This document shows, one piece after another, positions 8,371-52,133 of a DNA stretch of 52,278 nucleotides. Position numbers and translations under genes: made by a program. The notes under the pieces are model-generated. The model did not search any database, was not told where the DNA came from, and worked only from the letters and a program-made list of their open reading frames with translations. Source of the stretch: Nitrospinaceae bacterium (GTDB lineage: Bacteria; Nitrospinota; Nitrospinia; Nitrospinales; VA-1); the NCBI GenBank assembly GCA_028822815.1, contig JAPKCW010000001.1, positions 1 through 52,278 on the forward strand. The letters run 5' to 3'. Every line of letters starts with the position of its first letter. The first letter of the stretch is position 1.

Positions 8371-8398
8371 TATAAAAAAATTAAAAAGGATATCGACA

Positions 8399-8635
8399 AT
8401 GCCAGGAGAGGGACCTATAAAAATAACCGATACCGAGGAAATTGCTGTTTGCACCTGTATGCAGTCCAACCACTGGCCGTTTTGCGATGCCACGCATCAC
8501 ACCACCGGCGGCGATGGGCCGGAAATATTAAAGCTGGATAAAAATAAAACCTATTTATTATGTGGTTGCTTCAGAACGAAAAACAGGCCTTTCTGCGACG
8601 GATCACACGAAAAAATCAAAAAGACTGACCTATAA
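8399..8635 (+). CDS. CDGSH iron-sulfur domain protein (two motifs)
   Basis: CTCMQSNHWPFCDATH (Gly replaced by Ala) and CGCFRTKNRPFCDGSH (canonical C-x-C-x2-T-x3-P-x-C-D-G-S-H). Confidence 0.8.
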   Translation: MPGEGPIKITDTEEIAVCTCMQSNHWPFCDATHHTTGGDGPEILKLDKNKTYLLCGCFRTKNRPFCDGSHEKIKKTDL

Positions 8636-8717
8636 AAGGATATACGGGTCATTGCTAATTCCCGCCCATGCGTGACACCTCTGCATTTTATCAGCCGATT
8701 TGTACAAGTATCATCGA

Positions 8718-9539: not shown

Positions 9540-9650
9540 GCGTGGGGCCAACTGGCAATGGCGTTATATGGCAAGCAAAGGTATTGGCGCCTTGAGAAGC
9601 TGGGTGGCTAAATGGACCCCTCTTTTTCAAAGAGGGGCTGGGGTGATTTA
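9533..9650 (-). repeat. family-A REP/MITE-like intergenic repeat, reverse orientation, with distal 34-nt hairpin module
   Basis: It starts with CCACTAGGCGTGGGGCC (9533-9549) and ends with CCCCTCTTTTTCAAAGAGGGGCTGGGGTGATTTA (9617-9650). It is related to the copy at 44451-44569. Confidence 0.8.
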
Positions 9651-9689
9651 GAACCTATCGCGCAATATCCGGGCCAGTGGGCTTCCCGG

Positions 9690-14298: not shown

Positions 14299-14346
14299 TT
14301 AAAAGGTCCGATTAATTATAAATAAAGTTCATCCACCTATCTCTTG

Positions 14347-14362
14347 AGCAAAACCGATGCCA
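14347..14362 (-). promoter_or_regulatory. sigma-54 (-24/-12) promoter candidate for fliK-flgD-flgE
   Basis: The minus strand reads TGGCAT-CGGTT-TTGCT, matching TGGCAC-N5-TTGCW with correct spacing. There are 48 nt to the fliK ATG. Confidence 0.55.
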
Positions 14363-14734
14363 AAAACCGATATGAGTTCCCAATGGGTTTATGTATATAG
14401 GTTTACGCGTTTGAAGGCAGGGGGAATCCAGCCCTCATGACCCGGAAAAATCTGCCTCTGGGAGAAAAAAAATCCTGGTTTTTCAGTTGTGGTTTCTAAC
14501 TTTGACCGGGCAAAACCGTTTCTATCTCGACATTTTGCCTAAGTAACAACTTTGTTAAGATTTACAATGGGTAGCTAGATGCACTTTTAAAATGGTCCGT
14601 TTGGGTGTAAAATCAGGTTTTACAATTCGTTAAAACATTATGGTTTCTCAAGAAAAAATATTTCATGGCCATCCGTCAAAAACTTAAATTAGGTGATGTT
14701 CTGGTGAAAGCCGGGGAAAGCAGGAGGAATCCCT

Positions 14735-15001
14735 TTGGGGATTACAGAAAATGCCTCCTATACAGAGGAAAAAGTTCAGCTTTTATCCGGTGATGTGGTT
14801 TTCCTGTATTCTGATGGAGTGGTGGAGCCGATGAATAATCAAAAAGAACATTTCGGCATGGACAGGCTACGATCGATGATTGTTGAATCAAACGGAACGC
14901 CGGAAGGGGTTCTGGAAAAAGTCGAGAATGCCATACAGACTTTTACCCACAATGCACCGCAATTCGATGACATGACCTTCCTGGTGTTCAAGGTTCTTTA
15001 G
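14735..15001 (+). pseudogene. C-terminal remnant of a PP2C/SpoIIE-family phosphatase
   Basis: The ORF encodes only the last ~90 residues of the domain: (GGIP)LGITEN...LLSGDVVFLYSDGVVEP...HFGMDRL...APQFDDMTFLVFKV. Upstream pieces (IFHGHPS, LKLGDVLV) appear in other frames. Further 5' the sequence is stop-rich. Confidence 0.55.
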
Positions 15002-15023
15002 CGGCCGGGATACTTTTCCTAAA

Positions 15024-17361: not shown

Positions 17362-17448
17362 TGGTGCCGGAGGTCGGAATCGAACCGACACGAGGTTGCC
17401 CTCGCGGGATTTTGAATCCCGTGCGTCTACCAATTTCACCACTCCGGC
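17362..17448 (-). tRNA. tRNA-Leu (anticodon CAA), CCA encoded
   Basis: The reverse complement is GCCGGAGTGGTGAAATTGGTAGACGCACGGGATTCAAAATCCCGCGAGGGCAACCTCGTGTCGGTTCGATTCCGACCTCCGGCACCA. It shows a 7-bp acceptor stem, the anticodon loop TTCAAAA, a long variable arm and a T-loop GGTTCGATTCC. Confidence 0.93.
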
Positions 17449-17866: not shown

Positions 17867-19633
17867 TTACCCAGGTTTGGATTGTGCCAGAAGTTCGCGG
17901 ATTTTATCAGCCTCGGGCTGGCCGGGATCCAGATTCAGGGAGCGGGTAAAGTAGGCCAGGCCCTGCTTGGGCCTATTGAGGTGATAAAAATTAACAACGC
18001 CCAGATTTTTAAACACTTTGGAAGAACGGGGATTGAGCTCCACAGCACGCTTGAAATAAGAGTCCGCCAGCTTGAAATTTTTTTGCCACAAATAAATTTC
18101 CCCGAGCTTGGCAAAGGGTTCGGGAATTTCAGGCTCGATTCGACTGGCCAGCTGAAAATGCCGGAGTGCATCGGTTACCAAACCCTTTTCCAGGTAAAGA
18201 GCGCCCAAATTGTAATTGGTAGCAAAAACTCCGGGTCCTTTAACAAGCGATTCCTGATAATATTGTATAGCTTTTTCGCTGTTTCCCTCCAGGCTGTGAG
18301 CCCGTGCCAGGTTAATAAGGGGGCGTAGTTTATGCGGTGATTTCTGATGCGTATCCTGCCAGAGTGATAGCTCCGATTGCCACACCGCATTCCGCTTCAT
18401 GGTCATAATTCCCAAGGCGAACACACAAAAAATAAGAGTAATGTTTAGTGGTCGGGTTTCTCCCCATCGACAGGTTACTTCGGCGACACCGCAGGCAAAT
18501 AGGATGAAAATTCCCGCTGACGCGAGATAGGTCCGGTGTTCCGCAGCAAGATCGTGCAGGGTAACAATAGAAGAGGACGGGGAAAGAATGATGAAAAACC
18601 AGCACAGAAAAAAGAAAACAAAACGGGTTTTAAAAACTTTCAGGGAACAAAGCAACAAAAAAGCTATGCAAAACATTGGCAGCAAAAAGTTCCAGGATAG
18701 AAAACTGGTGACAACCGCTATATCGGGGTCGATATTGAGGTTCATAGGAAACAGTAGCATTTTTAAATAATAAAAAACGATCACACTCGGTTGACTGAGC
18801 ATGTACTTGGCCCTGCCGACCATCTCCTCGGGCCGTGATGGGCCTATAAGAAATGTCTCATCGGTAAGGAGCTTATAAAACAAAAAGCCGGCAACTCCGG
18901 CAATGATGCCAGTAATCGCCCACCGCCATTTTTTTAAAAACTGTAAAGCCGGGGAATGATCGGGGCAACTGCAAAGGTAATATAAGATCATTATAGCGGG
19001 CAGGGTTGCGACAATCTGTTTTACGCTGAAACCTACCAGGGCGATCAAAAATATGCTCAAAAAATAGAGGCCATATTGCAGGTGGGAGGTTGAGGATCGT
19101 TCCAATAATTGTTGAAACAGTAAAAACCCGGCAAGGTAAAAGGTCGAGGCGATGACCTCTGAACGGCTCATGATGTAAATTACGGATTCTGTTTGGATCG
19201 GGTGGCAAAGAAAAAAAACGGCTGAAAAAAAAGAAACGCTACGGATTCTTTTACTCCCCCAACCCACCGCTTCCATGCCAAAACGGCGAAGGGATTTTTC
19301 CAATACAAAAAAGAGAAGCAAGGCATTGAGAATGTGAAAAGCGAGGTTGAAAATATGGTACCCGAAGGGCCGAAAGCCATCCAGGTAAGCATTGAGGGCG
19401 AGGGATATTCTTAACAGGCCGCGTGCCAGGAATTCTTTTTTCCAGAATTCAAAGCTCAGCAGGGTTTCCGGATTTTTTAAGTTAGCGTTGTTGACAATGT
19501 AGGCAACGCTGTCAAATTGAAAGGGATTATTAAGATGATTGGAGAAAAATAAAACTCCAAGCAAAGAGATGAGCAGGCAGTAGCCCAGTTGGCTAAGTAG
19601 AGCCTGGGAGAATTTTGAATTTTCGGTTCTCAT
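17867..19633 (-). CDS. TMTC-like multi-pass membrane (GT-C/DUF1736-type) protein with C-terminal TPR domain, paralogue 3
   Basis: 588 aa. The first-loop motif is FQFDS. SRSEVIASTFYLAGF and AAEHRTYLAS are present. About 10 TM helices are followed by TPR repeats. Its start overlaps the upstream stop (ATGA). Confidence 0.75.
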   Translation of the reverse strand: MRTENSKFSQALLSQLGYCLLISLLGVLFFSNHLNNPFQFDSVAYIVNNANLKNPETLLSFEFWKKEFLARGLLRISLALNAYLDGFRPFGYHIFNLAFHILNALLLFFVLEKSLRRFGMEAVGWGSKRIRSVSFFSAVFFLCHPIQTESVIYIMSRSEVIASTFYLAGFLLFQQLLERSSTSHLQYGLYFLSIFLIALVGFSVKQIVATLPAIMILYYLCSCPDHSPALQFLKKWRWAITGIIAGVAGFLFYKLLTDETFLIGPSRPEEMVGRAKYMLSQPSVIVFYYLKMLLFPMNLNIDPDIAVVTSFLSWNFLLPMFCIAFLLLCSLKVFKTRFVFFFLCWFFIILSPSSSIVTLHDLAAEHRTYLASAGIFILFACGVAEVTCRWGETRPLNITLIFCVFALGIMTMKRNAVWQSELSLWQDTHQKSPHKLRPLINLARAHSLEGNSEKAIQYYQESLVKGPGVFATNYNLGALYLEKGLVTDALRHFQLASRIEPEIPEPFAKLGEIYLWQKNFKLADSYFKRAVELNPRSSKVFKNLGVVNFYHLNRPKQGLAYFTRSLNLDPGQPEADKIRELLAQSKPG

Positions 19634-21558
19634 GACGGCCCTTTCTGCATCTGGGCATGGTCAAGCAATTTTCGGGCGGTTGCGTTTCCAGGTTGCAGTT
19701 TGAGAACCTGCTCCAAGTAGGGAATGGCGTCCGCATAACGATTGTTTTTCAGGTGCAGGGCGGCCAGGTTTTGGTGGATGTCCGGAAGATCCTGTTGAAT
19801 GTCCAAGGCTTTTTTAAATGCAATTTCAGCTCTTTCATAGGCTTTTAAATTCCAGAAAATGATACCAATGTTATTTTGCGCCTGTGGATGCCTAGGTTTA
19901 ATAGCCAGCGTCTGGCGATATTCCTGAAGTGCTTCATCAAAAGATCCTACCTGTCGAAACGCGTTTCCTAAATCAAAGTGATAATCGGCTTTATGTGACC
20001 GCATGCTGACTGCTTTTTGCAAAAACGGAATGGCTTCTCCATAGGCCTTCTGCTTACTCTGGGCAAGGCCCGTAAAATAATAGGTGTCCGGTTTGTTAGA
20101 ACCCAGGGCAATAGCATGACCAAATTCTTCAATGGCTTGTTCCCAGTGTTTTTGCCGGAAATGGATATGGCCCAAGTTTGCATAGGCATCCGACTGGGTA
20201 GGGTTTAACTGCAGGGTAATGGCCAGTTCTGCTTTTGCTTCTTCGAGCATTTTGGTGTCCATATATGCGGTGGCTAGGTTGTTATGAACCAATGACTTGT
20301 TCGGCGATTTTTCTGCCGTGTCTTTCCACAGCGTGACCTCAGATCGGTAATCAAGCGAGCGGTTCACCGTGAGTAAAAAAGTAAGAGATAAAAATGCCAA
20401 CAAAAGGCCAGTTGCCAAAGCTTGAGCCCGACAAGCACTCAGAAACATCCAGCCCAGCGCAAGGCTGAATCCCAACCCGGGCAAATAGGTGCGGTGCTCC
20501 GTGGCAATTTGTTTGAGCGGAATAAAACTGGATGAGGGAAACAATGTGATGAAAAACCAGAGGACGGCAAATATTAAAATAGGAGATTTTTGCCGGGGAA
20601 CTATTATTGCTCCGACTGCTAAAATTCCAATAGCACAAATTAACTGCACGTCGATGAATCCGGATGGCAGGCGTATATCCGGCTCAAAGTTGAGATTAAA
20701 AGGCAGGAACAGCTTAAGCAGGTAATAGTGAACCACTACCTTGATTTGACTGAGAAAATATAAAAAACGGCTTGTCTCCCCGGAGACCGGATCGGCGTTT
20801 AAAGAAAAAATATTGCCCTGCTCTATATATCGATAACAAAGATAAAACAAAAGGGGCAGGAGAATGGCTCCGATTTTTGTCCTTAAAGATTTCCTCTCAT
20901 CGGGTGGAGTGATGAGCCAGATATAGATGATTGCCATTAAGGGAAAGGTGACGACAATTTCCTTGGTTCCAGCTGCGAGAAAAAGAAAACCTGAAATTCC
21001 CGCAATGAAAAGCAATTTGCCTGCCCAAGCCAGGTTTTCTTTGCGGGGGCGGACAAGCCTGCAAAAAATATAAAAGGCAAGCAGATAAAAAAATGTCGCC
21101 AAGCCTGATGAACGGCTTGAAATATAGGTAACCGTTTCCACCGTGAGAGGATTGAGTAAATGAATGGAAGCGCAAATTAGGGGCAACTGCTTGAGTTGAT
21201 TTGCGGCCGGCTCTAAGCGTAATAGTTCGCTGACCAGAAAATACCAGACCACTCCGGTCAGGATATGGATAAGAACATTGGTAAGGTGATACCCGAATAC
21301 ATCCAGCCCACCTATTTCCCGATTCACTGCAAATGTCAGCAAAAGAACGGAACGGTTAAAAATATTGCCGATGCCAACGTTATTTTGAAAATCATTCAAA
21401 TGTTGAATATAAGGATTCTCAACAATGGCATGGGCATCATCGTAAAGAAAAGGCGAATGAAAAGTGGCCCAGAAAGCCAGAAGGCCCATACAGGTGAGAA
21501 TTGTAACGGACTTTAGTTGATACCCGAAGGAACCAATGTCTGTGGTTTTGGAATTCAT
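19630..21558 (-). CDS. TMTC-like multi-pass membrane (GT-C/DUF1736-type) protein with C-terminal TPR domain, paralogue 2
   Basis: 642 aa. The first-loop motif is FLYDDAH. SRSSGLATFFYLLAF and ATEHRTYLPG are present, followed by TPR repeats. ATGA overlaps on both sides. Confidence 0.75.
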   Translation of the reverse strand: MNSKTTDIGSFGYQLKSVTILTCMGLLAFWATFHSPFLYDDAHAIVENPYIQHLNDFQNNVGIGNIFNRSVLLLTFAVNREIGGLDVFGYHLTNVLIHILTGVVWYFLVSELLRLEPAANQLKQLPLICASIHLLNPLTVETVTYISSRSSGLATFFYLLAFYIFCRLVRPRKENLAWAGKLLFIAGISGFLFLAAGTKEIVVTFPLMAIIYIWLITPPDERKSLRTKIGAILLPLLFYLCYRYIEQGNIFSLNADPVSGETSRFLYFLSQIKVVVHYYLLKLFLPFNLNFEPDIRLPSGFIDVQLICAIGILAVGAIIVPRQKSPILIFAVLWFFITLFPSSSFIPLKQIATEHRTYLPGLGFSLALGWMFLSACRAQALATGLLLAFLSLTFLLTVNRSLDYRSEVTLWKDTAEKSPNKSLVHNNLATAYMDTKMLEEAKAELAITLQLNPTQSDAYANLGHIHFRQKHWEQAIEEFGHAIALGSNKPDTYYFTGLAQSKQKAYGEAIPFLQKAVSMRSHKADYHFDLGNAFRQVGSFDEALQEYRQTLAIKPRHPQAQNNIGIIFWNLKAYERAEIAFKKALDIQQDLPDIHQNLAALHLKNNRYADAIPYLEQVLKLQPGNATARKLLDHAQMQKGPS

Positions 21559-23882
21559 GGAGTCGCGTTTTGCGGGCCGGTTAAATTTACCATCATTTTA
21601 TTTATTGCTTCATTTTGAGCCGGACTCAGGTCCATTTTTAAAGCCGTCTGCAAAAGTTCCCGGGCTTTTTTCATCTGACCAAGGTTAGCAAGAGTTTCTG
21701 CCAGAGAGATTTGTGCATTAAAATTATTGGGTTGGAGTGAAAGAGATTTTTCAAGAAAATCCTGTGCATTTTCCCAGTCTGCTTGCCGGTTAAAATTGAA
21801 ACCAATCTGAGCGTAGGCAGAAGGTCTGGGCCCGGTAACTTCAAGGAAGCTTTTAAATTGTTGTGTGGATGTGTCCCATTTTTCCTGCTTTTGATAAACC
21901 TTAGCAAGGTTGAACAGCGCGGGTTCATACCGGCTGTTCAGCTTTAAGCAATGTTTGAAGGCACTTACTGCCAATTCAAATTTGTCAGTCACCATATAAG
22001 CAGTGCCCAGGTTGAAATAAGCGGGCAATAAAGACGGATCTATTTTGAGGGCTGCTTCCCATTCCGTTACTGCGTTTTCAATTTTTCCGGTTTTTCCATA
22101 AAGTTCCCCCAAGTTCAACCGGGCCAAGGCAAAACCGGGGTCGGAATTTGACAAGTTGATTGCCAGTTTCAACGAGGCTATGGCTTGGTCGTACAACCCT
22201 TTTCGGTTATAAACCGAACTCAATCCTATTCTGGATGAAAAATGACCCGGCCTCAATGCCAGAGTTTTCAAGTATTCTTTTTCCGCGTCATCCAGTCGCC
22301 CTTGATCCAGATAAACGCTGGCCAGATTATAATGAGGTTCCACCAGCTCGGCCAGAAGTCCGATAGATTCTGAGGGGGAAAATTTATTGACGGATTTCTG
22401 GCCAGTTATTTTTTCGCGTCGCTTCAAAAATTCTTCAGCACTTTTTATATTGTACTGGGTGTCAATAAAATGGGAAATATTGGCAACGCTTTTTTCCAGG
22501 TGATGAGTCGCGAGGGCAAGATCACCCTTTTCAAAATAGGCTTTGCCAAGATTGTTATGGGATCTTGTTGACTTGGGATTCTTCTGGACGGAGTCTTTCC
22601 ACAAACTAATTTCGCTGATCCAGTCATTATTCCGGGTTGCTGTTCCCAGTGCAAACATGGGTAAAAGCACAAGCAACATTAAACAGCGCCAAGTGCGGGC
22701 GCCCCATCCCACAATCATGCACAGTCCTAATGTCATGGGAAGGTAAGTACGATGTTCCACAGCCAGATCGTTTAGAGGAATGATGCTGGAAGTGGGGGCG
22801 AGCGTAATGAAAAACCAGATGAAGCCAACGGCAACCCAAATATTCCTGCCTCGTGCCACGGTGAAAAAGATGCCGATAATAACCAGTCCCGCTAAAAATA
22901 TGAGCGGGTCGGATGCAGGGGTGCTGAACGGCAGGCCGCTGTCCACGTTCAGGTTGAAGGGAAACAGGAATAGCTTGAGATAATAAAAGACGATTACTTT
23001 TATCTGCACTAAAAAGTAAGGCATTCGTCCATAAAGTTCCAGCCCCTGGTCCTTGGCAATATAAAGCCAGGAATTGGCAACGATGTAGGCTCCCGCAAAA
23101 AAAACACCCAGGAAAAGACCCCATTTGAGCTGGAAAATTTTTTCAGCGAATTGCGGTTTCTGTGTTGAAACTATAAAGCCCAGATACCAAATTCCCATCA
23201 GAACAGGCAAGGTCGCACCAATGAGTTTTGAGGCAATGCTCATATATGCGCTTATCAGGATTGCTATGAAAAGCACCCATCTAAGGTTAAATTTAGGAAT
23301 TTTGTTTTTACGCGAAAACAGGCCGGTGAACAGGTAAAGCGCCAGTAAGTAAAAAAAGGTTACTAGTAATGAAGAACGGGAGGATATGTAAGATACCGAG
23401 TCGGTGTTCAAAGGGTGCAATGCAAAAAGCAAAGCTGTTGCCAAAGGAAACCCGCTAGCCGCGGCCGGGCCACGCCCGGTGGAAACAGGCTCCACGCCTT
23501 CGGCGGTCGCATTAGAGTTTTTACCAAGTTGTCTCTGGCGGCTCGCCGTCAGGTATTGGGTCCGCGAGATAAGAAAAAAAATCAATAGTGTGACACCAAT
23601 ATGAACGGTGAGATTAAATAAATGGAAGCCAAAAACCCGATTTTTTCCAAGCGTGTTATTTAATGCGTAGGTCCAGAGAACAACGGGACGGTTTTCAAAT
23701 GAGGAGAAACGAACCTGGCGATCGAATGCGTCCAGGTCTTCCACCCAATGACTTTGGATGAGTGGCAAATCATCAAACTGAAACGCGCCTTTCAGGGAAT
23801 TAAAATATACCGCGGTATTTGCCAGGATTAAAAGAAGCACACATCCTATAATTTTTTTAATTTCTGGCGGGGTGAGTATCAT
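21555..23882 (-). CDS. TMTC-like multi-pass membrane (GT-C/DUF1736-type) protein with long C-terminal TPR domain, paralogue 1
   Basis: 775 aa. The first-loop motif is FQFDDLP. SRSSLLVTFFYLLAL and AVEHRTYLPM are present. The TPR domain spans about 330 aa. Confidence 0.75.
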   Translation of the reverse strand: MILTPPEIKKIIGCVLLLILANTAVYFNSLKGAFQFDDLPLIQSHWVEDLDAFDRQVRFSSFENRPVVLWTYALNNTLGKNRVFGFHLFNLTVHIGVTLLIFFLISRTQYLTASRQRQLGKNSNATAEGVEPVSTGRGPAAASGFPLATALLFALHPLNTDSVSYISSRSSLLVTFFYLLALYLFTGLFSRKNKIPKFNLRWVLFIAILISAYMSIASKLIGATLPVLMGIWYLGFIVSTQKPQFAEKIFQLKWGLFLGVFFAGAYIVANSWLYIAKDQGLELYGRMPYFLVQIKVIVFYYLKLFLFPFNLNVDSGLPFSTPASDPLIFLAGLVIIGIFFTVARGRNIWVAVGFIWFFITLAPTSSIIPLNDLAVEHRTYLPMTLGLCMIVGWGARTWRCLMLLVLLPMFALGTATRNNDWISEISLWKDSVQKNPKSTRSHNNLGKAYFEKGDLALATHHLEKSVANISHFIDTQYNIKSAEEFLKRREKITGQKSVNKFSPSESIGLLAELVEPHYNLASVYLDQGRLDDAEKEYLKTLALRPGHFSSRIGLSSVYNRKGLYDQAIASLKLAINLSNSDPGFALARLNLGELYGKTGKIENAVTEWEAALKIDPSLLPAYFNLGTAYMVTDKFELAVSAFKHCLKLNSRYEPALFNLAKVYQKQEKWDTSTQQFKSFLEVTGPRPSAYAQIGFNFNRQADWENAQDFLEKSLSLQPNNFNAQISLAETLANLGQMKKARELLQTALKMDLSPAQNEAINKMMVNLTGPQNATP

Positions 23883-31623: not shown

Positions 31624-31747
31624 GGCCACCGGCGAACCGTCGGAGGCAACTGGCAGAAACTCTTTCAGACGAGATGAGTTGTTGCTAACCAGACAGGGCT
31701 ATTGCTCATTGGCCCCACGCCTAGTGGTTGCCATAGAGAAAATTACC
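31624..31747 (+). repeat. family-A REP/MITE-like repeat, forward orientation
   Basis: ...CCGTCGGAGGCAACTGG...GGCCCCACGCCTAGTGG (31711-31727) plus the tail GTTGCCATAGAGAAAATTACC, which is shared with the copy at 37210-37246. Confidence 0.8.
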
Positions 31748-37094: not shown

Positions 37095-37246
37095 GTACCC
37101 CTCCGGGGCATGAAAGTTAATGAAGAGGTCATCACGCAGGGGAGGCAACTAGCAAGGACTTGTTTGAGCCGAGAACATCGTTGCTAGCCAGATAAAGTCA
37201 TTGCCAGTCGGCTCCACGCCTAGTGGTTGCCGTAAAGAAAATTATC
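37095..37246 (+). repeat. composite repeat: module B + family-A unit filling the whole rimO-pfk spacer
   Basis: In order: GTACCCCTCCGGGGCATGAAAGTTAATGAAGAGG (37095-37128), ATCACGCAGG, then ...GGAGGCAACTAGC...GGCTCCACGCCTAGTGG (37210-26), then the tail TTGCCGTAAAGAAAATTATC. Confidence 0.8.
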
Positions 37247-44602: not shown

Positions 44603-45094
44603 ATGAATTTACCTGATATTCGTATTGGCAATGGTTACGATGTGCACCGTCTGGTTGAGGGCAGAAAACTCATCCTGGGTGGAGTCGATGTTCCGCATTC
44701 GATGGGACTGGACGGGCACTCTGATGCCGATGTTCTGGTGCATGCTTTATGCGATGCCCTGCTTGGCGCATTGGGCGCTGGAGATATCGGTAAGTATTTC
44801 CCGGACACCGATCCGAAGTGGAAGGGCGTCTCCAGCCTGCACCTGCTCAAAGAAGTCGTGCGCATGTGCAAAGGTTTTAAACTTGCTAATGCCGACTCGG
44901 TGATCGTTGCACAACAACCCAAGCTGGCCCCCTATATTTCGCAAATGAAAAAGAATATTGCTTTGGCGATGGATGTCGAACCAGACCGGATTAATATCAA
45001 GGCCACCACAACAGAAAAGCTCGGTTTTGCCGGGCGGGAAGAAGGCATCTCTGCGTATGCGGTGGCCTTATTGGTAAAAAATGACAGACCCTGA
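44603..45094 (+). CDS. ispF: 2-C-methyl-D-erythritol 2,4-cyclodiphosphate synthase
   Basis: [31 protein letters not shown] and DIG..FPD motifs. Confidence 0.93.
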
Positions 45095-46334
45095 TCAACG
45101 CATCGTAATCACAGGGATAGGCTTGACTTCCCCCAATGGCAACAACCTGCAGGAGTTTCGTCAAAACCTGTTAAACGGGGTTTCGGGAGTGCAACACTTC
45201 GAGACCCGGTATATGGGAAAGGTCCTCGCGGGGGTCTGTGATTTTGATGAACTGAAATACCAGAAAAAAAAGGAACGCCGCCGTGGCACCCGGGCCGGGT
45301 CCGTTGCCATCTACTGCTCGCGCGAAGCTTTTGCCAATGCCGAAATTGACTTGGAAGCGATTGACCGCTCCAGGGTAGGCGTCTATCTGGGGGTGACCGA
45401 GCATGGCAATGTCGAGACCGAGAACGAGGTCTACAACATCAGCCAGTATGATTATGATGTTAAGTTCTGGTCGCACCATCATAATCCTCGTACGGTTTCC
45501 AACAACCCTGCGGGAGAAGTGACCTTGAACATGAAAATCACCGGGCCGCATTACACCATCGGCGCGGCCTGCGCGGCAGGAAATCTGGGAGTTATCCAAG
45601 GTCTGCAGATGTTGCGGCTGGGTGAGGTCGATCTCGCTTTGGCGGGAGGGGTGTCCGAGAGTATTCATACCTTCGGTATATTTGCCAGCTTTAAAAGCGA
45701 AGGCGCCCTGGCCACGCATGAAGACCCCGCTAAAGCCAGCCGGCCCTTTGATAAAAACCGTAACGGAATTGTTTGCTCAGAAGGAGGGTGCGTCTATACC
45801 CTGGAACGGCTTACTGACGCTAAAAAGCGCGGGGCGAAAATTTACGGAGAGATCGTGGGGTATTCCATGAACTCTGATGCGATTGATTTTATTCTGCCCG
45901 ACCCGGGCAGGCAGGCCCAGTGCATACGTCTGGCGCTGGAGAGGGCCGGACTCGAGCCGGGCGACATCGATATCCTCAACGCGCACGCAACGGCAACGCA
46001 AATGGGAGACATCCAGGAAGCCAAGGCCCTGCGCGAAGTGTTCGGCGATAACTGCAAAGTGCGGATCAATAATACAAAAAGTTTCATCGGTCATACCATG
46101 GGTGCGGCAGGCACGCTGGAACTTTCCGGCAACCTGCCAGCATTCGATGACCTCATAGTCCACCCCACTATCAACCTGGACGATCTCGATCCGGAATGCG
46201 CCTTGAATAACCTCGTGGCTAACAAACCGGAAAAAATTCCCTCCGTAGATTACATCATGAACAATTCCTTCGGCATGTTCGGCATTAACTCTGTCCTGAT
46301 AGTCCGCAGTCCCTCTGCTGGGAACTTGCAATAG
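45081..46334 (+). CDS. beta-ketoacyl-ACP synthase (FabF/FabB-like elongating KAS)
   Basis: Active-site contexts are TIGAACAAG (Cys), NAHATAT (His) and IGHTMGAAG (His). The start overlaps the ispF stop by 14 nt. Confidence 0.88.
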
Positions 46335-46385
46335 CTTTTTACTGCGCCCAATTGGTCTTTAAGCTTTATGGACCATGGCAATTTG

Positions 46386-46499
46386 CCAGCGGAGGCTCTC
46401 CGCCCACTCCTGTGGGGGAAATCAGCAAGCACTTCTCAAGCCGACGGGGCCTCCTGATCGCCAGAGAAAGTTTTTGCCCGCTGGCCCCACGCCTAGTGG
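46386..46499 (+). repeat. family-A REP/MITE-like repeat, forward orientation, between KAS and ACP
   Basis: CCAGCGGAGGC...GGCCCCACGCCTAGTGG (46483-46499). It ends 68 nt before the ACP ATG. Confidence 0.75.
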
Positions 46500-46567
46500 A
46501 AAATTAGGGTTGAAATCTGCCCTATCTTCTACTAAAATCAGGGTTAAAGTGGATTTCGGAGACAAGT

Positions 46568-46831
46568 ATGACGATTGAAGATATACGACAGGTTATTCTT
46601 AATATCCTTGCCGATATTGCCCCGGATGAGGATATCAGTTCCATTGACGACAACACAAAACTGAGGGACCAGATTGATCTGGATTCCATGGATTTTCTCG
46701 ATATCGTCATGGAGCTTCGCAAGCGGTTTAACATCGAAGTGCCGGAAAAGGATTACGAGCATCTGGCAACGCTGGCCGGTTGTGTTTCTTATCTCACCCC
46801 ATTATTAAAAGACCGACAGTTGGCCAGTTAG
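46568..46831 (+). CDS. acyl carrier protein (non-housekeeping type)
   Basis: 87 aa. The phosphopantetheine site context is QIDLDSMDFLDIVMELRKRF. Confidence 0.85.
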   Translation: MTIEDIRQVILNILADIAPDEDISSIDDNTKLRDQIDLDSMDFLDIVMELRKRFNIEVPEKDYEHLATLAGCVSYLTPLLKDRQLAS

Positions 46832-46937
46832 GTTTTATACCCCCTCCCTTTTTTGACCCCAAAACAGATTCAGTTAAGTCGATATACCTTTTGCTCGCAA
46901 GGTAGAGTTATTGCTTACTGGGTCCAGCGAGTTATAT

Positions 46938-46985
46938 CTTCTTCATTAAATTTCATGCCCCGCATGGGGTATCACGCTGGCGCAG
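46938..46985 (-). repeat. module-B repeat, inverted copy, followed by ATCACGCTGGCGCAG
   Basis: CTTCTTCATTAAATTTCATGCCCCGCATGGGGT is the reverse complement of the module at 37095-37128 and 52177-52211. Confidence 0.65.
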
Positions 46986-47003
46986 TGGTGGTATAATTTG
47001 GCT

Positions 47004-48386
47004 ATGCGTTACGACACTATTATTATCGGCGCGGGTTTATCGGGTTTGGCCGCGGGCATTCGGTTGGCCATGTTCGATAAAAAGGTCTGCATTGTTGAAA
47101 AACATAGCGTGATTGGCGGTTTGAATTCCTTTTATGTAAGGAAAAACCGCGTATTTGATGTCGGACTCCACGCCATGACCAATTTCACTCCTAAAGGAGT
47201 CCGGTCATCGCCGCTCGGCAAGCTACTGAAACAATTGCGTTTCAGCCATGACGATTTTCGCCTGTGCCAGCAGGATATGTCGGAAATACATTTTCCTGAG
47301 AATTCCCTGCGTTTTACCAACGATTTTGAGTTTATGCGGCAGGAGGTGGCCGAACAGTTTCCCGATCAGATTGACGGATTCAACAAGTTGGTGGAAAAGA
47401 TCCTTTCTTTCGATGAGTTGAACCTTGACGATGCTGACCGTCTTTTGTCTCGGCCGGTTTTGGAGTCTTATATCAGCGATCCGGTGTTGATCGACATGCT
47501 GTTTTGCCCCTTGATGTATTATGGCAATGCGCGTGAGGGGGACATGGATTTTTATCAATTTGTCATCATGTTCAAGAGCATTTTTGTAGAAGGATTTTCC
47601 AAGCCCCAAGGTGGAATGCCTTACATCCTCAATCTCCTGGCTGATAAGTTCAAGCATCTTGGCGGTGAATTGAAGATGGGAAACGGGGTTAAAACCATCA
47701 ATGCAAAGCAGGGAACGGTCGATTCGGTGACGCTTGCAAATGAGGAAGAATTAGCAACTGCAGCGGTACTTTCTTCCATGGGCTATGTGGAAACGCTTAA
47801 CTGTTGCCAGCCTAAGCTTGCCGAGGCAGGTGTATGCGAGACGGGCCAGGTTTCGTTTATGGAATCCCTTTTTGTGGTGGACCGGGAGCCACGTGACCTG
47901 GGTTATGATAAGAGCATTGTCTTTTTTTCCATCCATCCACGCTTCGATTATAAAGTACCGGGCGATTTGATCGATATTTCCAGCGGTGTGTTGTGTTGCA
48001 GCAATAATTTTCAATACCCACAACCGCTTGAGGAAGGGCTGATTCGCCTGACCAATCTTGCCCATTTCGGAAAATGGGACAGCCTGCCGAGAAAGGACTA
48101 TATCGCCGCCAAGAAGGAATGCCGGACCCAGGCTTTGGAGGCTTTATTTACATTTTTTCCCGATTTTCGCGATAATGTGGTATTTTTAGACTCGTTTACG
48201 CCTAAGACCATTAAAAAATATACAGGCCACATTAATGGGGCTGTTTATGGGTCTCCGCAGAAAATTAAAAATGGAAAAACCCCTGTTAAAAACCTGTATA
48301 TTTGCGGGACAGATCAGGGGTTTTTAGGTATTATTGGGGCCACATTAAGCGGAATATCCATGGCCAACCTGCATATTTTACAATGA
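47004..48386 (+). CDS. FAD-dependent oxidoreductase of the phytoene-desaturase/CrtI (COG1233-like) family, paralogue 1
   Basis: The N-terminal dinucleotide fold reads YDTIIIGAGLSGLAAGIRLA...VCIVEKHSVIGG. The length (~460 aa) and the C-terminal GAVYG...NLYICG block fit the family. Confidence 0.78.
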   Translation: MRYDTIIIGAGLSGLAAGIRLAMFDKKVCIVEKHSVIGGLNSFYVRKNRVFDVGLHAMTNFTPKGVRSSPLGKLLKQLRFSHDDFRLCQQDMSEIHFPENSLRFTNDFEFMRQEVAEQFPDQIDGFNKLVEKILSFDELNLDDADRLLSRPVLESYISDPVLIDMLFCPLMYYGNAREGDMDFYQFVIMFKSIFVEGFSKPQGGMPYILNLLADKFKHLGGELKMGNGVKTINAKQGTVDSVTLANEEELATAAVLSSMGYVETLNCCQPKLAEAGVCETGQVSFMESLFVVDREPRDLGYDKSIVFFSIHPRFDYKVPGDLIDISSGVLCCSNNFQYPQPLEEGLIRLTNLAHFGKWDSLPRKDYIAAKKECRTQALEALFTFFPDFRDNVVFLDSFTPKTIKKYTGHINGAVYGSPQKIKNGKTPVKNLYICGTDQGFLGIIGATLSGISMANLHILQ

Positions 48387-48420
48387 CAGGCCCATCAAAA
48401 AATTCATCGTTTGAGAATCA

Positions 48421-49869
48421 ATGAGTAAACCATCGAAAGACTGGTTAAAGGGTGTTTTGTCTGCCTACGATACGGTTGTGATTGGCAGCGGTCTGGCGGG
48501 AATGACGTCTGCCAATCTTCTGGCTAAAATGGGGCACAAGGTTTTGCTGGCAGAGCATCATTACAATATGGGGGGCCTGGCCACCTGGTTCAAACGCAAG
48601 GGCGGGCATATCATGGATATCTCCCTGCACGGGTTCCCCTGCGGGATGATCAAAACCTTGCGAAAATACTGGAGCCAGGACATTTCCAAACGGGTCATCC
48701 AGCTTAAAAATGTTCGTTTCGACAATCCACAGTTTTCCCTCAATACCACTTTCGACAAAATAGACTTCACACATATCTTACGCGAGCGTTTCGGCATCCT
48801 TAAAGAAGTGATCGATGAGTTTTTTATGACCGCCCGAAGCATGAATTTTTATGACGAAGTGGTCATGACTACCCGCGACCTTTTTGAGAAATTTTTTCCG
48901 GGCCGCACCGATGTCTGGCGGTTTCTCATGGAACCGATCACCTATGCCAATGGTTCCACCTTGGATGATCCGGCACTGACTTACGGTATTGTTTTTTCCA
49001 ACTTCATGGACAAGGGAGTTTTTACCTATCAGGGTGGTACCGATCACCTGATTAAGGAAATGAAGAAGGAGCTTTTGCGAAACGGTGTGGACATTCGCAC
49101 TCACTGTTTGGTCGAAAAAATTTATGTGGAAGATAAAACGGTGCAGGGGGTTCGCATCAACGGGCAGGATATTGTGTGCAAGTCCGTCCTTTCCAATTCG
49201 AATTTATTGACTACCATCGAACAACTGACAGGCGAGGAACATTTTTCTCCCGAATTTATCAAAGAGGTCAAAAAAGTTCGGCTCAATAATTCCAGTTGCC
49301 AGGTTTATATGGGAATCAAAAAAGGGGAAACCGTGCCGCATGTAGGCGACCTGCTGTTCTCGTCCGTGGCGGACGAATACTGCACGGATAAAATATTGAG
49401 CAAAGACGTTACCAGCCGCACCTTTTCGTTTTATTACCCGGAGATCCGCCCGGGAACCAATCGTTATTCCATCGTTTCTTCGACCAACGCCCGGTATCAG
49501 GACTGGGCTAACCTGAGCGAATCTCAATATAAGAAAGACAAGCATGACTTGGAGCAAAGCACTCTCGATGCGCTGGAAAAATATGTTCCTGGCATTCGCA
49601 AAAAAGTGGATCATGTGGAAGCGTCAACACCAAAAACTTTCAAGCGCTATACCCTGCACCCTTCGGGTACTTCGTTTGGAACCAAGTTTGAGGGACTTAA
49701 AATAAGCCGAGACCTTCCTAATCAGATTAATGGGTTGTTCCATGCTGGGTCGGTGGGAATTATTATGTCGGGCTGGCTGGGAGCGGCGAACTATGGAGTC
49801 ATTGTCGCCAACGAAACGGATAAATTCCTCCGGCAGTTGAGCCCGAGCCTGGTGACCGCATCAGCCTGA
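48421..49869 (+). CDS. FAD-dependent oxidoreductase of the phytoene-desaturase/CrtI (COG1233-like) family, paralogue 2
   Basis: N-terminus reads [20 protein letters not shown]...[24 protein letters not shown] is present, as is a C-terminal GLFHAGS block. Confidence 0.78.
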
Positions 49870-49910
49870 AGTCAAATGGCCTCTTTTCGCTTTCCTGAAA
49901 CTCAATAACT

Positions 49911-50654
49911 ATGAAATTCGATTTTACCGGGCAAACGGCTCTGGTCACAGGTGGTACGCGTGGCATAGGCCGGGCCATCTCAGAGGCGTTCCTCAAAGCC
50001 GGAGCAAAAGTCATCGCTACTTATCTGGGTAATGATGGGGAAGCGGAGAACTTTAAACACGCCAATGCCGACCACGCAGACTTTCTCGACATTCATAAGT
50101 TCGATGTTTCCGATTATGTAGCGGTTGAAAAGTTTTATAAAGAAATCGAAACGAAATACGAAAACTTCCAGATCCTTGTTGTCAGTTCAGGCATTCGTTC
50201 CGATTCCATTGTTGGCATGATGAAGGCAGAGGACTGGAACCGGGTCATCAACACCAACCTGACAGGAACTTTCAATTTGTGCAAGCTGGCAGTACAGTCC
50301 ATGATGCGCCAGAGATATGGAAGGATCATCACTTTAACCTCTCCCATTGGCAAGTTCGGGTTTGCGGGCCAAGCCAATTACGCCGCGTCAAAAGCGGGTC
50401 AGGTGGCATTCACACGATCCCTCTCCAAGGAAGTAGCGAGCCGTAAGATAACCGTTAATTGTGTTTCGCCAGGTTTCATCGATACCGATTTCATTGGCGA
50501 TCTGCCGGAAGAACAGAAAAAATTCTATAAAGACCAGATTCCCCTGAAACGCTTTGGAACCCCGGAGGATGTAACCTGCCCGGTGCTGTTTCTTGCGTCA
50601 AAAGAATCTTCTTACATCACAGGTTCGGTGTTAGAGGTAACCGGGGGACTATAG
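49911..50654 (+). CDS. fabG: 3-oxoacyl-ACP reductase (FabG-like SDR)
   Basis: ALVTGGTRGIGRAI (TGxxxGIG) and the catalytic NYAASKAG (YxxxK). 247 aa. Confidence 0.85.
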   Translation: MKFDFTGQTALVTGGTRGIGRAISEAFLKAGAKVIATYLGNDGEAENFKHANADHADFLDIHKFDVSDYVAVEKFYKEIETKYENFQILVVSSGIRSDSIVGMMKAEDWNRVINTNLTGTFNLCKLAVQSMMRQRYGRIITLTSPIGKFGFAGQANYAASKAGQVAFTRSLSKEVASRKITVNCVSPGFIDTDFIGDLPEEQKKFYKDQIPLKRFGTPEDVTCPVLFLASKESSYITGSVLEVTGGL

Positions 50655-50655
50655 G

Positions 50656-51081
50656 ATGTCACAGGACTTTCTTCAATACATTCCCCATCGTCCGCCTTTT
50701 CTGTTTATCGACCGGGTGCTTGAAGAAAGCGACGATACTATCAAGGCGGAAAAAAAGATCGATCCGAAAGAACCGTTTTTTGAGGGGCATTTTCCTGGAA
50801 GACCGATCATGCCGGGAGTGTTGATCTTTGAATCCATTTTTCAGGCCGGCGCAATCATGATGGGGAAACGTATGGCCAACGAAGGCAAGATCCCGGTTCT
50901 CACCCGTGTCAATAACATTAAACTCAAGCATGCTGTTCATCCGGGAGATACGATGCAGATTGAGGTGAAGCTCAAAGATTTGGTCAGTACCGCCGCATAC
51001 ATGACGGGCAAGGCCACCGTCAACGGTAAAACTGCAGTCACCCTGGAGTTCTCCGCCATGCTGGTTGAGGAGACAAAATAG
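50656..51081 (+). CDS. 3-hydroxyacyl-ACP dehydratase (FabZ-like hot-dog fold)
   Basis: IPHRPPFLFIDRV and FFEGHFPGRPIMPGVLIFESIFQAG. 141 aa. The start is 1 nt after the fabG stop. Confidence 0.85.
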   Translation: MSQDFLQYIPHRPPFLFIDRVLEESDDTIKAEKKIDPKEPFFEGHFPGRPIMPGVLIFESIFQAGAIMMGKRMANEGKIPVLTRVNNIKLKHAVHPGDTMQIEVKLKDLVSTAAYMTGKATVNGKTAVTLEFSAMLVEETK

Positions 51082-51120
51082 CGGAGAATGAGCACGTTAT
51101 ACTTTTCATTAGCCTTTGTG

Positions 51121-51298
51121 CCTCGAAGGAGATCTTTGCATGATCTGGTATTTTCATTACATACGCTCTTCAGCATAACAAATCAAATCTCACAAGATCG
51201 TCATCGCGAGCCGCAAAGCGGCGTGGCGATCCAGAGTTTTTCTGGATTGCTTCACTTTGTTCGCAATGACGATTTATGCAAAGGTCTCCTCTCGAAGG
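51121..51298. mobile_element. MITE-like non-autonomous element: imperfect ~21-23-nt terminal inverted repeats around an internal ~73-nt palindrome
   Basis: The left TIR is CCTCGAAGGAGATCTTTGCAT (51121-41). The right TIR is ATGCAAAGGTCTCCTCTCGAAGG (51276-98). The internal palindrome CGTCATCGCGAGCC...GTTCGCAATGACG spans 51199-51271. There is no coding capacity. Confidence 0.55.
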
Positions 51299-51326
51299 GG
51301 TAACGGCTTTATAAGGTGAACAAAAA

Positions 51327-52133
51327 ATGAGTTTTCTCGATCTTGAAAACAAAAGCTTCTTAGTGACCGGAGTAGCAAACAGGAAAAGTGTTGCCTGGCA
51401 TATTGCGAAAGTGCTGGAAGAAGAGGGTGCGAAGGTTATATATAGTGTCCGCTCCGAAGATCGTAAAAAGTCACTGGAAAAGCTTCTAGCAGGTAGGCCG
51501 GTCTTCGTCTGTGATGTGGAGAAACAGGAAGATATTGAACGTTTAAAGATCCAGGTGGCGCAACACAGTAAGGTCCTGCACGGACTCGTCCACTCCATAG
51601 CTTTTGCAAATTATTCTCAGGGCTTGAAACCCTTTCATGAAACGCCGAAAAAGGATTTTCTTCAGTCCGTCGATATCAGTTGTTATTCCCTGATCAGTCT
51701 CGCCAACGTTTTTAAGGACTTCTTCGATCAACAGGCCTCTGTTGTTACAGTATCGATCTCCACTACACGGATGGCGGCGGAAAATTACGGATACATGGCT
51801 CCGGCGAAGGCAGCGCTCGATTCCACTCTCTGTTTCCTGGCAAAATCGTTCAGCGCATTTTCACAAGTCCGGTTCAACTCCATCAATCCAGGCCTGCTCA
51901 AGACATCGGCCTCGGCGGGCATACCCGGCTATATCGATTCCTACCTGCATGCCGAAAAGGCAACATTGAGGAAAAAAGGTCTGACCACTCAGGAGGCGGC
52001 CAATGCAGCGGTATTTTTGTTGAGCAAACGCGCAAGTGGCATCAATGCCCAGGGTTTGGTTCTTGATGCCGGAATGTCCATCAACTATTTTGATCAGGAA
52101 TTGACCACTAGGCGTGGGGCCAACGAACAATAG
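51327..52133 (+). CDS. fabI: enoyl-ACP reductase (FabI-like SDR) with repeat-encoded C-terminal tail
   Basis: [22 protein letters not shown] (FabI-type N-terminus), the YMAPAKAAL catalytic Y-x6-K, and [10 protein letters not shown]. The last ~9 codons are read from the repeat at 52105. Confidence 0.85.

Follow-up and report, generated by a model that had tools for sequence, protein, structure and literature searches.

What does a set of fatty acid synthase genes make when it is built around two flavoproteins that resemble carotenoid desaturases? The question is raised by a stretch of 52,278 nucleotides from a Nitrospinaceae bacterium (contig JAPKCW010000001.1, positions 1 to 52,278; termed the window). 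Its ORF list shows seven same-strand open reading frames (ORFs) at 45081-52133 that encode, in this order, a 3-ketoacyl-acyl carrier protein synthase (KAS), an acyl carrier protein (ACP), two flavoproteins (FL1 and FL2), a ketoacyl reductase (KR), a dehydratase (DH), and an enoyl reductase (ER). Established bacterial routes to unsaturated acyl chains are O2-dependent desaturases, isomerization of the FabA/FabM/FabX type, and the Pfa megasynthases. CrtI-like flavoproteins in fab clusters, flagged in 2009, have resisted characterization since. The best reading of the present data is that the seven genes form a self-contained and laterally widespread unit. There is about an even chance that this unit is a discrete type-II “secondary lipid” synthase, which makes (poly)unsaturated acyl-ACP without O2 and feeds the Ole enzymes in hosts that have ole genes. 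Rattray et al., who first noticed the cluster type in 2009, anticipated this idea, which is still unproven. New here are the compact form in Nitrospinota, the breadth across phyla, the linkage to genes for Ole enzymes and a phosphopantetheinyl transferase (PPTase), and fusions of FL2 with a dehydratase.

All seven genes carry the motifs and belong to the families that the original prediction had named, as is seen in the ORF translations and in the Pfam and NCBIfam matches of all seven proteins. The same prediction held that the parts resembling type-II fatty acid synthase (FAS-II) are not typical housekeeping copies. This is borne out, as most score under the equivalog cut-offs, ACP and KAS have signatures of their own, and a relative has a second FabF. 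KAS consists of the N- and C-terminal ketoacyl-synt domains (Pfam), retains an intact Cys/His/His triad, and has FabF proteins as its top sequence matches in the PDB (~229 bits). On the fabF model TIGR03150 it reaches 329 bits against a cut-off of 494. The gate loop reads GM[FLI]G (GMFG in the window) in place of the GFGG of FabF, and a second gate loop shows a two-residue deletion, with GSGIGG replaced by G[VI]TEHGN. These and other loop changes are invariant in all orthologs. ACP harbors a PP-binding domain (39 bits) and scores 35.5 bits on the acyl_carrier model TIGR00517, where the cut-off is 70. Its orthologs from all phyla share the motif [DE][LM]DSMDFLD..ELRKR[FY] at the place where AcpP has DSLDTVELVMALEEEF. 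The window ACP reads DLDSMDFLDIVMELRKRF, which is conserved across all orthologs, and the acidic helix II of the AcpP type, DSLD(T)VELV..EEEF, is absent. Compared with AcpP, the ELRKR motif therefore points to a recognition helix (helix II) that is basic instead of acidic. The references for these motif comparisons were the AcpP and FabF sequences of E. coli.

The remaining FAS-like enzymes diverge to different degrees. KR has an adh_short_C2/KR domain, passes the FabG subfamily model NF009466, and scores 279 bits on 3oxo_ACP_reduc (TIGR01830, cut-off 298). DH takes on the FabA/FabZ hotdog domain with the motifs HFPG..PxMPGV and E-x-x-x-Q. It passes the FabZ model NF000582 (133 bits, cut-off 113), lies under the cut-off of TIGR01750 (126 bits, cut-off 155), and additionally matches ApeI/ApeP-like hotdog models; its ortholog in N. 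gracilis matches the ApeP-like model weakly. ER is a FabI-like adh_short_C2 protein with the Y-x6-K motif, which reaches up to ~131 bits against FabI proteins in the PDB and 170 bits on its top FabI equivalog, far from the cut-off of 362. The sequence identity of KAS and ER to canonical FabF and FabI is estimated at ~30-40%. Since their orthologs in other phyla are 60-73% identical to the window proteins, the cassette enzymes are far tighter as a group than they are toward the canonical ones. Judged by sequence, each FAS-like part forms an orthologous group of its own that stays under most housekeeping cut-offs.

It is improbable that the cassette is the plain housekeeping FAS-II of Nitrospinota into which two unrelated flavoprotein genes were inserted. 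Such an origin would agree with the intact KAS, ACP, KR, DH, and ER genes in a neighborhood of core genes, and with the one FabZ equivalog and the one FabG subfamily cut-off that DH and KR pass. It does not account for the scores of KAS, ACP, and ER far under housekeeping cut-offs, for the basic helix II of ACP and the altered gate loop of KAS, both of which are family-wide, or for the conservation of the whole set, flavoproteins included, as a unit with about 50-73% identity in unrelated phyla. In some Nitrospinota the cassette is also split. A Pfam scan of window ORFs with 150 aa or more revealed no fabH, fabD, plsX, thioesterase, or acyltransferase gene, as had been noted from the sequence at first sight. 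Furthermore, a close relative has an extra, more canonical FabF. On its Nitrospina-like contig (L098), the gene for a cassette KAS with 92% identity to that of the window is accompanied by a second KAS gene 3.2 kb downstream (13687-15006, minus strand), which is located alone beside a DUF1318 gene and outside any fab operon. The second KAS reaches 461 bits on fabF and 450 bits on PRK07314, whose cut-off of 387 it passes, so close relatives possess another elongating condensing enzyme besides the cassette KAS.

FL1 and FL2 are distant paralogs (23% identity, E 3e-24) that each combine an Amino_oxidase with a NAD_binding_8 domain (Pfam), and FL1 adjoins ACP and FL2 in every syntenic locus. An AlphaFold model of FL2 was built from a 146-sequence alignment and has a mean predicted local distance difference test score (pLDDT) of 91.6; an earlier run with 28 sequences from Nitrospinota only gave a pLDDT of 59 and was discarded. 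The top structural neighbor of the FL2 model in Foldseek is the gamma-carotene desaturase 4REP (template modeling score, TM, 0.73), which is followed by the oxidoreductase 3KA7 and NicA2. Plant phytoene desaturase (PDS, 5MOG) aligns with a TM of 0.69 and CrtI (4DGK) with 0.58-0.68. FL2 is thus predicted to adopt the three-domain FAD amine-oxidase-like fold of the CrtI type, with the GxGxxG motif, that is shared by CrtI, CrtD, CRTISO, and plant PDS. The proposal of CrtI-fold flavoproteins in a dedicated, ACP-tethered set is thereby upheld for the fold of FL2, and it does not extend to membership in the CrtI or CrtD families by sequence. The structural alignments to carotenoid enzymes show only 14-17% identity, and a profile search of PDB sequences with FL2 returns solely 4REP and CrtI (~1e-10). 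The P. acnes fatty-acid isomerase (PAI), another suggested comparison, is absent from the best 50 structural matches of the FL2 model. FL2 scores highest in NCBIfam on carot_isom (95 bits), followed by CrtD (94 bits) and crtI_fam (TIGR02734, 78 bits), and FL1 on CrtD (80 bits), carot_isom (77 bits), and crtI_fam (57 bits). All of these values are under the cut-offs, which are 550 for CrtD, 587 for carot_isom, and 238 for crtI_fam. Neither sequence nor genomic context places FL1 and FL2 in the CrtI, CrtD, or CRTISO families.

Within Nitrospinota the cassette is conserved as a whole. The organism of the window is related to Nitrospina. The FL2 relatives listed, the best 120, have identities of 68-96%, and those that carry an organism name are all from Nitrospinota (Nitrospina, Nitromaritima, Nitrohelix), except for one ‘hydrothermal vent metagenome’. 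The seven-gene order, whose conservation had been put forward as a test, recurs in 15 Nitrospinota genome loci, is complete in 31 of 80 metagenomic Nitrospinota-like loci, and is found in many loci of other phyla. This recurrence is far beyond chance. N. gracilis 3/211 has the identical order, and since a rubrerythrin gene and then opposite-strand genes come next in this organism, ER is taken as the end of the cluster. The older N. gracilis assembly (L002, GCA_000341545.2) presents KAS as two pieces of 290 and 76 aa at 6879-8174 and KR with 224 aa, whereas the newer one (L003, GCA_021845485.1) has an intact KAS of 414 aa at 6930-8174 and a KR of 247 aa; the older record probably carries frameshift or sequencing errors.

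In some Nitrospinota the cassette is split. Six metagenomic loci that extend 7 kb or more beyond KAS show no ACP to ER genes after it. ispF and KAS lie together in L098, L106, L112, L115, and L166, with ACP-FL1-FL2-KR-DH-ER not within 7-10 kb downstream, and KAS alone is detected in L152, with no ispF match. These ispF-KAS loci indicate that the cassette can split with KAS staying beside ispF. In L005, L007, and L008 the ACP to ER genes are preceded by unrelated genes, and in L004 and L103 an insert of 1.8-2.3 kb separates KAS from ACP.

The contact with ispF had led to the suggestion that the cassette is tied to the methylerythritol phosphate (MEP) pathway genes upstream. The overlap of 14 nt is real, and the tie itself does not hold: the adjacency is common in and specific to Nitrospinaceae, no other phylum shows it, and in N. 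gracilis an insert of 5 kb separates ispF from KAS. An isoprenoid- or carotenoid-related function that is coupled to the MEP pathway via ispF is accordingly hardly credible, even though the overlap, the persistence of the ispF-KAS adjacency in some Nitrospinota in which the rest of the cassette has moved, and the CrtI/CrtD fold of FL2 could be read in its favor. The crtI_fam scores of both flavoproteins lie far under the cut-off. Neither the window nor the related loci contain crt genes (crtB/crtE), no hpn genes are found near the cassette, and unlike in carotenoid enzymes, the genomic partners of FL1 and FL2 are all acyl-ACP enzymes. In addition, the phytoene-desaturase-like (PD-like) homologs of anammox bacteria did not make lycopene or desaturate phytoene (PMC4790861). 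A carotenoid function is rejected on scores, gene context, and this lycopene assay of homologs, and functional coupling to the MEP pathway is rejected on the lineage-specific adjacency of ispF. The low crtI_fam scores and the lack of crtB/crtE nearby rule out a carotenoid enzyme identity, which supports the original view that FL1 and FL2 are not bona fide carotenoid enzymes.

The cassette had been called private, which is wrong, as it is widespread across phyla. The FL2 family is compact (188 clusters at 50% clustering, E<=1e-30). A scan with one genome per species finds at least 592 stretches that encode an FL2 relative, and the species representatives with cassette orthologs number several hundred and span at least five named phyla. 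Synteny across phyla was mapped by tblastn of the seven window proteins on the best 80 loci. The full order KAS-ACP-FL1-FL2-KR-DH-ER is present in Nitrospinota, Chloroflexota/Dehalococcoidia, a Nitrospirales metagenome-assembled genome (MAG), and MAGs labelled Deltaproteobacteria, and KAS-ACP-FL1-FL2-DH-ER without KR in Phycisphaerae and some Planctomycetia. KR is thus part of the cassettes of Nitrospinota, Chloroflexota, Smithella, and Bacteriovorax and is missing from the Phycisphaerae and Planctomycetia versions. Dispersed versions are found in Planctomycetaceae and Pirellulaceae. Gimesia has KAS-ACP-FL1-FL2-DH, and in Allorhodopirellula and Neorhodopirellula KAS-ACP-FL1 is arranged divergently from FL2. 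An additional search extended the range to Halobacteriovorax, Bacteriovorax, Oligoflexia, Rubinisphaera, and Smithella. Smithella is a strictly anaerobic syntroph, and the presence of the cassette in it fits an O2-independent chemistry.

Some Dehalococcoidia MAGs deviate at the front of the cluster. In L019 and L040 it is tandemly duplicated (oleA-KAS-ACP-oleA-KAS-FL1-...), with two KAS copies that are 67-73% identical to the window KAS. L024 has two KAS copies and one oleA match, and its ACP follows the second KAS.

The strongest functional clue comes from relatives and is not visible from the sequence of the window. It consists of the linkage to ole genes, an Sfp-type PPTase, and fusions of FL2 to a dehydratase. 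Directly beside the cassette, oleA or oleABCD is found in 13 loci. These come from at least four named phyla and show four arrangements, which were mapped by tblastn with four Ole proteins from Smithella. In Smithella (L085), oleABCD lies inside the cassette, KAS-ACP-FL1-[oleA-oleB-oleC-oleD]-FL2-KR-DH-ER. The OleC candidate, a ligase of the olefin beta-lactone synthetase type, scores 483 bits, and the OleD candidate, a short-chain dehydrogenase/reductase of the 2-alkyl-3-oxoalkanoate reductase type, scores 388 bits, by far its top match; the OleB candidate is a haloalkane-dehalogenase-like hydrolase. The condensing enzyme of the KASIII type in this locus reaches 397 bits on PRK09258 (cut-off 285) and 111 bits on fabH (cut-off 292). 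Cassette-adjacent KASIII proteins are in general not FabH-like, with 397-448 bits on PRK09258 compared with just 100-120 on fabH, and some bear the JGI label acyl-CoA:acyl-CoA alkyltransferase, i.e., OleA. In Nitrospirales (L026), the ole genes are directly upstream of KAS (oleABCD-KAS-ACP-FL1..FL2-KR-DH-ER). Phycisphaerae loci L045 and L057 have oleC-oleD-KAS-ACP-FL1-FL2, and six Chloroflexota loci begin with oleA-KAS-ACP. An oleA gene is found downstream of ER in L081 and in L062, where oleD is additionally upstream of KAS, and L084 has FL2::DH-ER-oleA-oleB. All four ole genes accompany the cassette only in L026 and L085, the remaining ole-linked loci have some of them, and the window cassette itself has none.

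The Sfp-type PPTase gene follows ER in 14 loci, and a gene for a FabD-like transacylase follows the cassette in two. Two separate fusions place a FabZ-like domain at the C-terminal end of FL2 (P0122, 625 aa; P0275, 644 aa), and P0275 is encoded in a cassette that lacks a separate DH gene. These fusions link FL2 to the reaction of the dehydratase.

From fold, fusion, and context we infer the substrates, the type of reaction of FL1 and FL2, the degree of unsaturation, and the fate of the product in Nitrospina as follows. The dedicated ACP would carry the growing acyl chain, and elongation would be carried out by the FabF-like KAS, KR, the FabZ-like DH, and the FabI-like ER; for malonyl loading and priming the cassette presumably relies on primary fatty acid synthesis. 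FL1 and FL2 would keep or install C=C bonds on ACP-bound intermediates without O2. Most likely, they would take the enoyl-ACP made by DH and either isomerize it, as CRTISO does with its substrate, or dehydrogenate it; in selected cycles the intermediate would thereby skip ER, and the double bond would survive elongation. The bypass would fill the role that FabA-type domains have in the Pfa synthases of polyunsaturated fatty acids (PUFA). In other cycles ER would permit full reduction. The presence of two flavoproteins could reflect two regiochemistries or a heterodimer. The resulting acyl chain would be (poly)unsaturated, and in the ole-linked phyla OleA would join two such chains head-to-head, upon which OleBCD would yield a long-chain C31:8/C31:9-type polyolefin. 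In Nitrospinota, the acyl product might go to unlinked Ole enzymes or to membrane lipids.

The closest functional parallel to this scheme is the combination of Pfa and OleABCD in Shewanella, Photobacterium, and Geobacter bemidjiensis. In Shewanella, C31:9 is made from Pfa-derived 16:4 via OleABCD (PMC4882568, PMC6463001), and in G. bemidjiensis pfa, ole, and pfaE are arranged in tandem (PMC4882568). Like Pfa, the cassette would be an O2-independent secondary lipid synthase with its own ACP and PPTase, an ER, and dehydratase-based placement of double bonds, and the pfa-ole tandem parallels the cassette with PPTase and ole genes in L026, L085, and others. Since the recurrent oleA/oleABCD and PPTase genes mirror pfa-pfaE-ole, the acyl product is likely the OleA substrate in the ole-linked phyla. 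The resemblance is functional only and does not include sequence membership. Pfa is a type-I multidomain megasynthase whose double bonds come from FabA-like DH domains, whereas the cassette encodes discrete enzymes with a FabZ-like DH; all cassette proteins are single-domain, and the PfaA model is matched with 89 bits against a cut-off of 1010. By analogy, the CrtI-fold flavoproteins may stand in for the isomerizing domains of Pfa. A similar logic, in which an enoyl-ACP is diverted from ER and then elongated by an accepting KAS, is known from FabA/FabB, FabM, FabN, and FabX. FabA is a hotdog protein, and FabX is a FabK-like flavoenzyme with FMN/[4Fe-4S]. These systems differ from the cassette in that they belong to other protein families, use the housekeeping ACP, and are not linked to ole genes.

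Several points weigh against polyunsaturated acyl-ACP and its conversion to olefins. CrtI-family enzymes normally need a double bond next to the site of attack, and direct desaturation of a saturated chain would be unusual. With an ER in the cassette, a saturated or a monounsaturated product is just as conceivable. No ole, PPTase, or FabD gene is found in the flanks of the 15 genome and 80 metagenome loci of Nitrospinota (~95), and a search with the OleA profile shows no Nitrospinota protein among its best 120 matches, which are of the Chloroflexota type. With no ole gene near the Nitrospinota cassettes, an olefin fate is unsupported for the organism of the window. Furthermore, the PD-like homologs from anammox bacteria failed an assay for lycopene (PMC4790861).

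If Ole is absent in Nitrospina, the leading alternative is that the cassette supplies unsaturated acyl chains for the membrane without O2, a capacity that would suit life in oxygen-minimum zones. In its strict form this alternative is an O2-independent route to monounsaturated membrane fatty acids that replaces FabA/FabB or FabX: FL1/FL2 would convert the trans-2-enoyl-ACP made by DH to the cis-3 isomer, the special KAS would elongate it, 16:1 and related chains would enter phospholipids, and the ole linkage would be secondary. In N. gracilis 16:1 cis-9 is abundant, and oxygen-minimum zones are a habitat of Nitrospina. Such a route would fit the lack of ole genes near the cassette in the ~95 Nitrospinota loci, the presence of the cassette in the anaerobe Smithella, and the housekeeping genes that lie upstream of the cassette in the window (tsf, pyrH, frr, uppS, cdsA, dxr, and ispF). 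The fusions of FL2 and DH suit an isomerase that acts on the DH product, and the top NCBIfam match of FL2 is a carotenoid isomerase model. It is nevertheless unlikely, because it leaves the repeated linkage of oleA/oleABCD and the Sfp-type PPTase in other phyla unexplained, and because one isomerization would hardly call for two flavoproteins, a separate ACP, and a full set of KR, DH, and ER. Many hosts, e.g., aerobic Planctomycetes, are also expected to own ordinary desaturases. The genome paper and text searches hold no usable data on fatty acid synthesis or lipids for Nitrospina.

Other accessory genes vary by lineage. Downstream of ER/PPTase, loci L017, L027, and L051 encode an SRPBCC protein (polyketide-cyclase/START-like), a Condensation-domain protein that stands alone (458 aa), and a DUF362 protein (438 aa). 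This conserved trio may form an offloading or acyl-transfer branch in those lineages. In Smithella (L085), a ferredoxin-like Fer4 protein and an Fe-S oxidoreductase with FAD_binding_6/NAD_binding_1/DHODB domains are encoded just upstream of KAS (39-1971) and could be the electron partner of the flavoproteins, and an AsmA/YhdP-like gene comes after ER (13576-15018). L084 contains a 620-aa protein between FL1 and FL2::DH (7915-9774) that matches no Pfam or NCBIfam family and has no tblastn match in any other locus compared.

Accessories of this kind could mean that the cassette is a type-II polyketide synthase (PKS)-like system for another specialized lipid, such as a conjugated polyenoic, a furan-type or isomerized, or an esterified or amide-linked one, which would be offloaded by acyltransferases encoded elsewhere and would not involve Ole in most hosts. 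This is quite unlikely. The lineage-specific SRPBCC, Condensation, and DUF362 genes in several MAGs labelled Chloroflexota or Deltaproteobacteria, the AsmA-like gene in Smithella, the match of DH to ApeI/ApeP-like models, and the desaturase/isomerase fold of the flavoproteins speak for such a product. However, only the ole genes and PPTase recur as accessories across several phyla, the core is devoid of a chain-length factor (CLF), an adenylating starter enzyme, a thioesterase, and a methyltransferase, and ER argues against a fully conjugated polyene. Aryl-polyene and type-II highly reducing PKS clusters are defined by a ketosynthase (KS)/CLF pair, two ACPs, an adenylating starter enzyme, a thioesterase, LolA/MMPL export, and the absence of an ER. 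The cassette has one KAS, one ACP, and an ER, and none of the accessory families was found, which sets it apart from those clusters.

The secondary lipid synthase proposed here has its nearest precedent in the literature in the PD-like genes that Rattray et al. described in FAS-II clusters of Kuenenia, Desulfotalea psychrophila (DP1860, DP2405, DP2406), Geobacter, and Pelobacter (PMC2649909). D. psychrophila makes C31:8/C31:9 hydrocarbons and lacks pfa genes, the same hydrocarbons had earlier been identified in members of the Planctomycetes, and a novel anaerobic pathway to PUFA or polyunsaturated hydrocarbons was proposed for these clusters (PMC2649909). By gene content, they agree with the cassette in that amine-oxidase genes (pfam01593) lie among FAS-II genes with their own ACP and KAS. 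DP2405 and DP2406 are consecutive locus tags, which in gene content resembles the paired FL1 and FL2. The clusters differ by their additional radical-SAM enzymes, phenylacetyl-CoA ligase, and membrane protein, and by a FabI that is encoded elsewhere in the genome. The link to ole genes was not drawn in that work, and among the papers searched none joins OleA-D with phytoene or hentriacontanonaene with Planctomycetes.

The comparison with the anammox PD-like/fab clusters, which was made in the original prediction, is apt. Anammox cluster I (kuste3603-3608) encodes amxACP, amxFabZ, amxFabF2/amxFabFmut, a PDH-like protein, and a B12 radical-SAM enzyme and has been proposed to make ladderanes. According to a 2023 paper (PMC10139942) and a 2026 preprint, the link between cluster I and its product is still without experimental evidence, amxFabZ is specific for amxACP, and the cluster is exclusive to ladderane producers. 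Common to it and the cassette are a dedicated ACP that has its own partner enzymes, divergent versions of FabZ and FabF, and a CrtI-like flavoprotein. Cluster I differs in having one PDH-like gene, a KS/CLF-like pair of FabF proteins, and the B12 radical-SAM enzyme, and neither KR nor ER. Membership of the cassette in the ladderane clusters is rejected, as it lacks a radical-SAM enzyme and a KS/CLF pair and encodes a single KAS, whose triad is intact, together with two flavoproteins, KR, and ER.

A bolder version of the proposal can be put forward only tentatively and has clearly less than an even chance. In it, FL1/FL2 and DH would constitute an uncharacterized, flavin-dependent, and O2-independent machinery for double bonds, which forms together with KAS, KR, and ER a discrete route to polyunsaturated chains. 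It would be the missing precursor pathway for C31:8/C31:9 in Planctomycetes, Desulfotalea, and Smithella that lack pfa, a cousin of the PD-like step in anammox ladderane synthesis, and a source of unusual unsaturated lipids in Nitrospina. The conserved unit, its ole/PPTase linkage, and the fusions turn a vague association into a testable pathway. If true, it would explain polyunsaturated hydrocarbons in bacteria without pfa, provide a compact gene set for anaerobic PUFA or olefin production, inform the ladderane problem, and add a new lipid trait to Nitrospina, the main marine nitrite oxidizer, which is dominant in oxygen-minimum zones.

The coordinates of the cassette and of other features are listed in Table 1. 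The start of FL1 follows the gene caller, which chose the ATG on an identical contig (L001) and thereby yields a protein of 460 aa.

Table 1. Features of the window, with the sequence identity that cassette orthologs from other phyla show to the window protein
Feature	Position	Strand	Description	Identity in other phyla
KAS	45081-46334	+	417 aa; FabF-type condensing enzyme, distinct subfamily	67-73%
ACP	46568-46831	+	87 aa; dedicated acyl carrier protein	54-64%
FL1	47004-48386	+	CrtI/CrtD-like flavoprotein, amine-oxidase fold; ATG at 47004, TTG alternative at 46998	47-56%
FL2	48421-49869	+	482 aa; CrtI/CrtD-fold flavoprotein, signature gene of the cassette	61-67%
KR	49911-50654	+	247 aa; FabG-like 3-ketoacyl-ACP reductase	
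DH	50656-51081	+	141 aa; FabZ-like 3-hydroxyacyl-ACP dehydratase	
ER	51327-52133	+	268 aa; FabI-like enoyl-ACP reductase, final cassette gene	60-69%
KAS/ispF overlap	45081-45094	+	14 nt; KAS ATG at 45081, ispF stop at 45092-45094; ispF at 44603-45094	
Dispersed repeat	9533-9558	-	copy of TTGCCnGnTGGCCCCACGCCTAGTGG	
Dispersed repeat	31702-31727	+	copy of TTGCCnGnTGGCCCCACGCCTAGTGG	
Dispersed repeat	37201-37226	+	copy of TTGCCnGnTGGCCCCACGCCTAGTGG	
Dispersed repeat	46474-46499	+	copy of TTGCCnGnTGGCCCCACGCCTAGTGG	
Dispersed repeat	52105-52130	-	copy of TTGCCnGnTGGCCCCACGCCTAGTGG	

The spacers of the cassette contain no RNA family of Rfam, and a promoter and terminator scan gave background levels only. 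The DH-ER spacer (51082-51326) measures 245 nt in the window versus 0-60 nt in the close relatives L009, L004, and L006. It contains a hairpin (51225-51251) followed by a T-rich tail, and among all loci compared the spacer segment matches L001 alone. The first two-thirds of the KAS-ACP spacer, with most of a 67-aa ORF (46375-46578), likewise match no other locus but L001. This ORF and a 71-aa ORF in the DH-ER spacer (51088-51303) were rejected as genes, because neither the gene calls of the intact N. gracilis locus (L003) nor the ORF map of any other related locus include a counterpart. The window ends 145 nt past the ER stop.

A dispersed repeat of ~26 nt, TTGCCnGnTGGCCCCACGCCTAGTGG, looks like a REP/MITE-like element and has five copies in the window, some of which share longer matching flanks. 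One copy lies inside the KAS-ACP spacer, and a reversed copy encodes the last nine codons of ER (TTRRGANEQ).

Elsewhere, the window encodes three consecutive big TPR-repeat proteins of 588, 642, and 775 aa (17867-23882 on the minus strand and the 304-1107 region on the plus strand), ATPases of the type IV pilus/type II secretion system kind, the flagellar hook genes flgE, flgD, and fliK, and one tRNA-Leu(CAA) gene (17362-17448). All of them are ordinary and have no relation to the cassette.

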